Assembly (NCBI RefSeq): GCF_003334815.1
Contig: NZ_QOWO01000081.1
Reading direction: 5' to 3' (one strand)
Length of the DNA: 3,658 nt
DNA from: Escherichia coli
GTDB taxonomy: Bacteria > Pseudomonadota > Gammaproteobacteria > Enterobacterales > Enterobacteriaceae
Below the pieces are notes generated by a model that worked only from the letters and a program-made list of their open reading frames with translations, searched no databases and was not told where the DNA came from. Positions 2,990 to 3,185 of the stretch are shown one piece after another. The translations under genes were made by a program, and so were the position numbers. How positions within the stretch are numbered: position 1 is the stretch's first letter; every line of letters starts with the position of its first letter.

Positions 2990-3165
2990 CGGGTAATTTT
3001 GCTTATCCACATTAAACTGCAAGGGACTTCCCCATAAGGTTACAACCGTTCATGTCATAAAGCGCCAGCCGCCAGCGTTACAGGGTGCAATGTATCTTTT
3101 AAACACCTGTTTATATCTCCTTTAAACTACCTAATTACATTCATTTAAAAAGAAAACCTATTCAG
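2990..3165. other. Candidate origin of vegetative replication (oriR-like): DnaA box plus AT-rich unwinding region downstream of repA1
   Basis: Consensus DnaA box TTATCCACA at 3003-3011, followed by a strongly AT-rich tract (about 3090-3160), about 170-330 bp downstream of the repA1 stop, as expected for IncFII oriR. Boundaries are approximate. Confidence 0.55.
3003..3011 (+). promoter_or_regulatory. DnaA box (TTATCCACA)
   Basis: Exact match to the 9-mer consensus TTATNCACA. Confidence 0.6.
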
Positions 3166-3166
3166 T

Positions 3167-3185
3167 GTCTGTCCTGTGGACAGAC
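3167..3185. repeat. Perfect 8-bp inverted repeat with a 3-nt spacer (GTCTGTCC tgt GGACAGAC) at the right edge of the AT-rich origin region
   Basis: Direct inspection: 3167-3174 is the reverse complement of 3178-3185. Confidence 0.5.

Follow-up and report, generated by a model that had tools for sequence, protein, structure and literature searches.

What is the perfect inverted repeat that lies at the far end of a plasmid replication origin, beside its AT-rich tract, and is it a working part of that origin? The question is raised by a stretch of 3,658 nucleotides from Escherichia coli (contig NZ_QOWO01000081.1 of assembly GCF_003334815.1), referred to here as the window. An initial annotation of its interval 2990-3185 had described a consensus DnaA box, an AT-rich tract and a perfect inverted repeat, and could not assign the last of these to any known element. 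This interval was identified as oriR, the vegetative origin of an IncFII (R1/R100-type) plasmid; as such, it is already known and ordinary. The repeat, at 3166-3186, is best read on comparative grounds as a conserved right-hand boundary element of oriR, and its loop and right arm most likely descend from a second, inverted DnaA box. This agrees with the earlier guess that it might either bind a protein or form a structural edge of the region that unwinds.

The inverted repeat and its conservation

The elements of oriR, from left to right, are the following.

3003-3011, plus strand: consensus DnaA box TTATCCACA (exact match), the left boundary of oriR
3012-3094, plus strand: candidate RepA-binding region (by homology), near-identical to R100 and highly conserved in the family
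3095-3149, plus strand: AT-rich unwinding region with three TCNTTTAAA 9-mers (3095-3103, 3118-3126 and 3141-3149)
3155-3163, plus strand: conserved block AACCTATTC (family consensus AACCTRTTC), between the last 9-mer and the inverted repeat
3166-3186: inverted repeat TGTCTGTCC - TGT - GGACAGACA, arms 3166-3174 and 3178-3186, perfect over 9+9 with a 3-nt loop
3175-3183, minus strand: DnaA-box-like 9-mer (bottom strand 5'-CTGTCCACA-3', top strand TGTGGACAG), matching at 7 of 9 positions

The repeat had at first been given arms of 8 bp (3167-3185). Its perfect complementarity holds but the length does not, as the arms run to 9 bp each and are 100% complementary. As single-stranded DNA, the repeat folds with -8.5 kcal/mol on the top strand and -8.3 kcal/mol on the bottom strand (z about -3.5), and only 0-1 of 200 shuffles were as stable. 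By our own arithmetic, a perfect 9-bp hairpin repeat with a loop of 3-8 nt is expected about 0.08 times in the whole window, so that the repeat taken alone is only moderately unusual. It is to be regarded as more than a chance occurrence because it is conserved in relatives.

This conservation was followed in two samples. The first comprised 40 loci encoding RepA relatives of 57-99% identity, with one genome per species. The second comprised 120 metagenome contigs, and here the search pattern was anchored on the 9-mers and the AACCTRTTC block only, the repeat itself being excluded from it. Among 154 pattern instances, 141 are true family members, 12 look like chance by our own reading, and one, L030, is a family member with a different element. 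In the first sample, three contigs (L004, L005 and L007), filed as Lachnospiraceae, Streptomyces morookaense and Candidatus Nanosynbacter, carry IncFII-family RepA genes of 77-97% identity, which are most likely enterobacterial plasmid contamination of the assemblies.

It was observed that CCTGTGGACAG is present in 35 of the 37 full-length relatives, across the range of 57-99% RepA identity, and that TGTGGACAG, which is the loop plus the right arm, is nearly invariant in the R1-type clade and turns up in 115 of the 140 origins sampled. In each of the 37 loci, GGACAG stands 175-178 bp from the DnaA box. According to the family profile, the block 3155-3183 is conserved to the same degree as the DnaA box and the 9-mers. 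Within it, conservation reaches 94-100% at T20 and T22 of the loop and in the right arm GGACAG, and the core of the repeat is invariant beside adjacent columns that have diverged freely. At pair 3, the right-arm A (R3) is invariant, while its left-arm partner is T, C or A. The neighbouring AACCTATTC block has columns that are invariant or nearly so in 29 distinct relatives, and 8 of its 9 positions are invariant in all R1-type relatives.

The perfect form in the window is a rare allele of a normally imperfect palindrome. The window has a T at 3169 where R100 has a C; the R100 repeat consists of 6 bp, a C·A mismatch and 2 bp, and the T therefore turns this interrupted repeat into a perfect one of 9 bp. 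Among 140 in-register origins, all nine pairs are formed in 6, eight in 62 and seven in 55. The initial annotation had named conservation among related replicons as a check on the repeat, and the outcome is divided: the perfect form is not conserved, since R100 and most relatives keep 7-8 of the 9 pairs, whereas the imperfect palindrome and its TGTGGACAG core are conserved strongly.

Pairing and covariation in the palindrome

In the 29 distinct relatives, standard pairs make up 76.5% of the cells; sliding the 3' arm lowers this to 20-38%. For the same 29 sequences, the repeat has a covariation score of 0.151, which is above 500 of 500 shuffles. The outer pairs carry most of the detail. Pair 8 is Watson-Crick in 114 of 117 unique origins (G-C in 102, A-T in 12, A·C in 3); the G-C and A-T states lie in separate clades, the A·C intermediates are rare, and the switches from G-C to A-T are independent. 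Three paired states, C-G, T-A and G-C, are seen at pair 7, and C·A is the usual intermediate. On a tree derived from the flanking sequence, parsimony requires that pair 7 changed its state 20 times and pair 8 five times. Within the R100-like clade, the C·A mismatch has been converted both ways, to T-A, as in the window, and to C-G. On this comparative evidence, the dyad symmetry of the repeat is shown to be under selection.

The folding of the relatives was also compared. Over 67 variants, the mean fold is -5.0 kcal/mol on the top strand and -5.9 kcal/mol on the bottom strand (z -2.2 and -2.6). The two strands also differ: in distinct sequences, C·A mismatches, which are G·T wobbles on the bottom strand, number 56 against 7 top-strand wobbles, but they go back to few inherited events, and the composition of the left arm alone predicts about 6:3 per transition. 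The bottom-strand hairpin is the more stable one in 53 of the 67 variants, and an assignment of strand from such figures is doubtful.

Could the repeat be a neutral remnant, without present function, whose conservation comes from shared ancestry or from the exchange of origin modules? Its perfect form is certainly rare (6 of 140) and one base away from R100, and modules do move between plasmid groups, an example being the ter/G-site segment that is 91% identical to IncI1 R64. However, the core stays invariant next to freely diverged columns, the repeat persists with fixed spacing at 57-59% RepA identity, and the compensatory changes are multiple and independent. A remnant of this kind is, thus, held to be very improbable.

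A probable second, inverted DnaA box

The DnaA box TTATCCACA follows the consensus TTATnCACA, and CTGTCCACA agrees with it at 7 of 9 positions, such that the TnCACA hexamer is whole and the TTA part is lost. These two parts are known to be read differently: the helix-turn-helix motif of DnaA reads TnCACA in the major groove, and Arg399 reads TTA in the minor groove (PMC5742627). Within the origin proper, no inverted 9-mer downstream of the consensus box, other than that at 3175-3183, comes within 2 mismatches.

For comparison, more distant origins with an initiator of the same family were gathered, the IncL/M origin being taken from a plasmid other than pCTX-M3. In each of these sister origins, a forward DnaA box stands on the repA-proximal side, and the far end carries an inverted one, which shortly precedes a conserved GCCTTCGCTTGCAGCGG block. 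We take a far-end box of this kind to be common to the origins of the family. The far-end inverted boxes read as follows.

IncI2: TGTGGATAA
Enterobacter IncFII-like plasmid: TGTGGATAA
IncFII(K): TGTGAATAA
IncI1 R64: TGTGAACAA
IncL/M: TGTGGATTA
Yersinia plasmid: GGTGGATAA
Erwinia plasmid (L030): TGGGGATAA
Pantoea plasmid: TGAGAATAA

All of them have the same orientation, and their shuffle P values range from 0.001 to 0.07 per lineage. In a MAFFT alignment, the window's CCTGTGGACAG is set exactly on the sister inverted boxes, with the T, G, G and A columns invariant. Alignment and position together show the loop and right arm of the repeat to be the positional homologue of these boxes. In the R1-type clade, the DnaA-like box and the palindrome appear to be fused into one 21-bp element, in which the right arm is complementary to the left-arm CTG because CAG is fixed in place of TAA. 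In a Citrobacter clade represented by L031 and L038 (RepA 59%), at about locus position 3747-3770, the right arm (CCTGTGGACATGTGTATAACGCC) shares its last four bases with a perfect relaxed-consensus DnaA box, TGTGTATAA, and the palindrome and a full DnaA box coexist.

Two classes of origin can be told apart by the spacing of the forward and inverted boxes, 125-139 bp (I-complex, IncL/M, IncFII(K), Pantoea and Yersinia) versus 172-181 bp (the R1-type clade and L030). These classes differ by about 3.5-4 helical turns, a difference that matches the presence of the TCNTTTAAA 9-mer array.

The site may already have a name. Eight DnaA-like boxes are listed for mini-R1, and boxes 1, 3, 4 and 8 were mutated (PMC5883639). 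In R100, the only 9-mer with at most 2 mismatches between published box 1 and box 3 (TTATACATG) is the one corresponding to 3175-3183, which is, judging from this position, probably the 'DnaA-box2' of that study. As for the right-hand DnaA boxes of the sister origins, no description was found in the searchable literature, which did not cover the primary origin papers.

Inverted repeats recur at the same boundary in the sister origins with unrelated sequences. IncI1 and IncI2 have CCCTGCG-N9-CGCAGGG, and IncFII(K) has its compensated form, CCCTGCA-N8-TGCAGGG. The boundary repeat is GTTCACCCCAC-GAT-GTGGGGATAAC in L030 and ACTTATTCA-C-TGGATAAGT in the Yersinia plasmid. In these last two lineages, a DnaA-like box lies inside a repeat arm, independently in each and within a repeat different from that of the window.

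The repeat could also be a purely structural element, that is, a stem-loop, a cruciform or a GC-rich clamp at the edge of the melted region, which would limit or stabilise the bubble or shape the junction between single- and double-stranded DNA. The likeness to a DnaA box would then be vestigial, the site no longer binding DnaA. The GC-rich inverted repeats that IncI1, IncI2 and IncFII(K) keep between the opened region and the right DnaA box are unrelated to the window's repeat, and they would fit such a role. So would the compensatory changes at pairs 7 and 8, which lie outside the 9-mer, the freedom of the central loop base to vary, the fixation of 'CAG' where DnaA prefers 'TAA', and the hairpin potential that is kept over the 67 variants (z about -2.2 to -2.6). 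The stem, however, is short and often interrupted. Further, the conservation of the right arm and of T20 and T22 in the loop goes far beyond the needs of pairing, as is seen at R3, an invariant A whose partner may be T, C or A; this asymmetry points to sequence-specific recognition of TGTGGACAG. A structural role alone is, therefore, considered unlikely, though it keeps an appreciable share of the probability.

A further proposal is that the dyad binds another dimeric protein. This could be a RepA dimer, by analogy with the Rep dimers on the inverted repeats of iteron plasmids, or a host factor reading CTGNCC-N3-GGNCAG. A conserved dyad of 15-21 bp with rigid spacing to the other origin elements would suit such a protein, and symmetric covariation could reflect co-evolution with one that is plasmid-encoded. 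Against this, the repeat has no similarity to the RepA-box-like AAACTGCAA at 3014-3022, its core is invariant while RepA diverges to 57% identity, and around an asymmetric TGT centre the half-sites are very unequally conserved. The LexA spacing and the IHF consensus are both absent. Binding by such a dimer is, thus, judged improbable.

Individual host factors were also considered from the sequence. A LexA box has the consensus CTG-N10-CAG with an AT-rich centre; the repeat reads CTG-N9-CAG (CTGTCCTGTGGACAG), one base short and with a GC-rich centre, and a LexA (SOS) box was rejected. IHF and CRP sites were similarly rejected, as their spacing or consensus did not fit.

Proposed role of the boundary element

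The opening of a plasmid origin by RepA, with DnaA as an auxiliary factor, is described in the literature, and at R1 oriR too DnaA is auxiliary (PMC5883639, PMC4980987). Following this mechanism, cis-acting RepA would bind beside the consensus DnaA box at 3003-3011 and melt the AT-rich 9-mers at 3095-3149. DnaB-DnaC would be loaded with the help of DnaA, and replication would then proceed in one direction, rightward through the ter sites. The element at 3166-3186 may still be a low-affinity candidate site for DnaA, as its TnCACA is kept and its TTA lost. If so, this candidate site on the right would act with the left box and RepA to enclose the unwinding region, and DnaA would be brought close to the melted strands for the loading of the helicase. 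The palindrome may contribute through a short stem-loop in the unwound strand, or through a small cruciform extruded from the duplex; either would mark or stabilise the edge of the bubble. It is proposed, then, that the repeat is a composite: a boundary element able to form a hairpin, which contains an inverted DnaA box in remodelled form and would aid DnaA-assisted helicase loading. We offer this as a tentative explanation, in which our confidence stops somewhat short of even.

A number of observations weigh against the composite. The match at 3175-3183 has two mismatches and is not significant alone (shuffle P about 0.27), and classic footprints reportedly show only the left box. The central G of the loop, which equals the conserved C8 of the DnaA box, varies in 10 of 69 distinct variants, about 14% (TAT, TCT, TTT), which is more in keeping with a free hairpin loop than with a strict DnaA site. 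The invariant 'CAG' is off the DnaA consensus, so that DnaA binding leaves its conservation unexplained. As only 6 of the 9 box positions are double-stranded in the hairpin, DnaA binding and the hairpin may exclude each other. The stem itself is weak in most relatives, with pair 3 unpaired in about 48% of distinct variants and a mean of only -5 to -6 kcal/mol, and R100-type origins have an internal mismatch in it. Lastly, the shuffle statistics overstate independence because the sequences are phylogenetically related.

A wider proposal may be drawn from the sister origins. All theta-plasmid origins of the RepA family (IncFII, I-complex, IncL/M and relatives) would be bracketed by two convergent DnaA boxes around the RepA sites and the unwinding region, and in the R1/R100-type clade the right box would have been remodelled into a 21-bp hairpin-forming palindrome keeping the TnCACA half. 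Such a general rule is possible but doubtful.

The origin and its replicon

The window as a whole is a textbook IncFII basic replicon, with the following features to the left of oriR.

830-985: sok RNA (Rfam RF01794, 84 bits), part of a hok/sok-type toxin-antitoxin module at 830-1124, upstream of the replicon
975-1124: open reading frame of 49 aa, Hok-family, with a score under the NCBIfam cut-offs
1408-1656: CopB/RepA2 regulator (NCBIfam naming; PRK13702 match)
1794-1885, minus strand: CopA antisense RNA (Rfam RF00042, 102 bits)
1958-2827 (stop 2825-2827): repA1, the IncFII initiator RepA (TIGR03474, 582 bits; PRK13750, 619 bits)
2828-3002, plus strand: spacer from the repA1 stop to the origin, positioned from the repA1 reading frame

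The origin lies in the non-coding stretch 3' of repA1 and in cis to it, and repA1 is under the control of copB and CopA. An Rfam scan of the window gave only CopA and sok, both upstream, and no match in the origin region. The spacer is presumably the 'CIS' region of the R1 literature; Masai and Arai are said to have dealt, in 1988, with a CIS and rho-dependent terminator function. A GC hairpin region in it, at about 2848-2880, is conserved in the family profile.

The DnaA box that had been noticed at 3003-3011 is indeed TTATCCACA on the plus strand, with no mismatch, and a box with 0-2 mismatches stands at the same place in 37 related loci. By our own arithmetic, 3.6 kb would hold an exact 9-mer box about 0.03 times by chance, both strands counted. 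With one mismatch allowed, the mean is 0.54 per window; the box alone is weak evidence, since 88 of 200 shuffles hold at least one such match. Adjoining the box, inside the candidate RepA-binding region, is the AAACTGCAA at 3014-3022, which we liken to what we take to be the IncB 'RepA box' AANCNGCAA of Betteridge et al. 2003. The AT-rich stretch reported to follow the box was recovered as well, with 25-32% GC over 3080-3160 against 45-65% in the flanks. Its three direct 9-mers, TCTTTTAAA, TCCTTTAAA and TCATTTAAA, begin at 3095, 3118 and 3141, with a spacing of 23 bp, and where relatives keep the first 9-mer, it stands 92 bp from the DnaA box.

That the spacing from the repA1 stop fits an IncFII oriR, as had been suggested, is borne out, for in the window, just as in R100, the stop is followed by the DnaA box at a distance of 176 nt. 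An oriR of this type has its consensus box some 170-180 bp past the repA stop and, adjoining the box, a RepA-binding stretch of about 85-100 bp. Alignment with R100, proposed at the time as a check, gave a near-identical origin with scattered substitutions only. Over the aligned 2800-3658, the mean column identity is 92%, the R100 segment overhanging the end of the window; over shared columns, it is about 96% by a hand count from the alignment. From this near-identity, we infer that initiation at the window origin is RepA-dependent. The origin call is considered correct because IncFII RepA, CopB and CopA are present, R100 is nearly identical, the published layout is matched and both ter cores are found.

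The 188-bp minimal oriR may be placed in two ways, which disagree: 2998-3185, which ends at the repeat and follows a 170-bp CIS spacer, and 2982-3169, which ends inside the left arm (coordinates 1406-1593, box at 1427). The published R1 oriR has 188 bp and one consensus DnaA box, with RepA binding immediately downstream (PMC5883639).

The origin sequence is found in 3,478 of 5,426 complete E. coli genomes, about two thirds, and a similar sequence in more than 5,000 PLSDB plasmids. The allele of the window is rare, with at least 99% identity in only 2 of 4,142 E. coli records. The region is nearly always without annotation in E. coli records, and no submitter rep_origin annotation over it was found in PLSDB or in RefSeq E. 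coli.

Downstream of the repeat

To the right of the repeat lie the following features.

About 3203-3226 (approximate): second GC-rich hairpin (in relatives, GCGGNC-loop-GNCCGC), family alignment columns 107-112 and 119-124
3234-3247, minus strand: Ter site terRL, core GTGTGTTGTAACTA, matching the Ter core GNRNGTTGTAACKA
3370-3383, plus strand: Ter site terRR, core GAATGTTGTAACTA, matching the same Ter core

Both Ter sites were called with GNRNGTTGTAACKA, which we take to be the consensus of the core. The two oppositely oriented cores form a 13-bp perfect inverted pair, 128 bp apart. On the polarity that we assume for Ter, terRR faces the rightward helicase from oriR, which would be odd if DnaB must pass terRR to the leading-strand start. 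In R1, two ter sites, terRL and terRR, lie between the minimal oriR and the leading-strand start, and those at 3234-3247 and 3370-3383 correspond to them (PMC10331603).

A second GC-rich hairpin of the GCGGAC-loop-GTCCGC type stands 10-30 bp to the right of the inverted DnaA box, or DnaA-like box, in every sampled lineage. It is 86.5% paired, 3 of its 6 pairs have changed on both sides, and its covariation is 0.321 versus 0.099 in shuffles; the window and R100 carry a divergent version of it. Immediately left of terRR, at 3317-3363, is a 22-nt imperfect inverted repeat, AAAAGCGGCCCCGCCCCGGCCC / GGGCCGGAACAGAGTCGCTTTT, which is 77% complementary with a 3-nt loop and is kept across the family, IncI and IncFII(K) origins included. 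The segment 3305-3658, which holds the ter/putative G-site module, is 91% identical to IncI1 R64 (L043, 1958-2309), whereas the window RepA is barely alignable with that of R64 (BLASTP 22.5% over 102 aa). The module is a shared replication-fork module that is apparently exchangeable.

The repeat ends 3 nt before the ATG (3190) of a 64-codon open reading frame, 3190-3384, and a few RefSeq records annotate 'RepA4' here. It could be supposed from this that the repeat is an expression signal for that frame, either a translational operator or a transcription terminator. In relatives, however, the frame is absent or has 7-128 codons while the underlying DNA, with its ter sites and hairpins, is conserved, and 'RepA4' is probably no gene because its reading frame is not conserved. 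A scan of 2828-3658 found no promoter-like site, and none of the three terminator-like sites detected is the repeat. The expression-signal explanation is, therefore, effectively refuted. An intrinsic terminator was also rejected by itself, there being no T-run within 2 nt of the repeat on either strand.

Significance

IncFII replicons carry much of the antibiotic-resistance and virulence load of the Enterobacteriaceae. As an origin, the present one is nothing new, being the R100/R1 oriR with a few base changes. Its value lies in the previously unassigned repeat which, per the comparative data, is a selected part of the origin. The reading as a second box is a modest, specialist-level lead that can be tested, and it does not amount to a new kind of system.

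According to Ortega-Jimenez et al. 1992, as cited in PMC4980987, R1 replication stays DnaA-dependent after the consensus oriR box is destroyed. Similarly, mutations in R1 box 1 alter the copy number and do not abolish replication (PMC5883639). If a weak second site does recruit DnaA, it would explain a DnaA dependence without the consensus box, and it would point to an A-site-like, hairpin-assisted loading of DnaB at a plasmid origin. The comparison also yields an annotation rule for this origin family, a region which genome pipelines currently leave blank: a DnaA box, RepA sites, an AT-rich tract, an inverted DnaA or DnaA-like box and a conserved GC hairpin.

Comparison with known systems

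The R100/NR1 and R1 oriR share with the window the gene order of copB, copA, repA1, spacer, origin and ter sites, the three TCNTTTAAA 9-mers, and the DnaA box 176 nt after the repA1 stop; they differ by point differences only. The right-hand boxes of the sister RepA-family origins have the same place, after the AT-rich region and before the GCCTTCGCTTGCAGCGG hairpin block, the same orientation and the same CTGTGGA / CTGTGRA core. They match TTATnCACA with 0-1 mismatch, whereas the window, with TAA changed to CAG, has 2 mismatches, and its box, unlike theirs, is fused with a complementary left arm into a palindrome. The I-complex/IncFII(K) repeat (CCCTGCG-N9-CGCAGGG) likewise lies directly to the right of the opened AT-rich region and is kept by compensatory change. 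Its sequence is different, its loop is longer, and it is not fused with the right DnaA box but lies about 30 bp upstream.

In E. coli oriC, DnaA box R1 stands in the TGTGGA... orientation directly after the AT-rich unwinding element, and the sequence there is CTGCCCTGTGGATAA. Several relatives of the window read CTGCCCTGTGGACAG, a 12-nt identity with oriC; the window itself shares only the 8-mer CCTGTGGA with it, which could be chance. The manner of opening is also different, as oriC is opened by DnaA oligomers on about 12 boxes, whereas a window-type origin is opened by the plasmid RepA with DnaA as auxiliary (PMC5883639, PMC4980987).

In the 'A site' of the ABC primosome (Masai et al. 1990, as described in PMC6127211), DnaA binds a hairpin holding a DnaA box and loads DnaB-DnaC. 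The window repeat has in common with it a short hairpin repeat that overlaps a DnaA-box-like sequence, beside DNA that would become single-stranded. The A site, however, has the whole consensus box in its stem, while the window has 6 of 9 positions in the stem and 3 of 9 in the loop, and its box is degenerate. Despite its hairpin of -8.5 kcal/mol, the window repeat, thus, falls short of the A-site definition, which is a stable hairpin in single-stranded DNA with a complete DnaA box in the stem. By analogy, it is still the ABC primosome that, among the described mechanisms, the proposed role of the repeat most nearly resembles.

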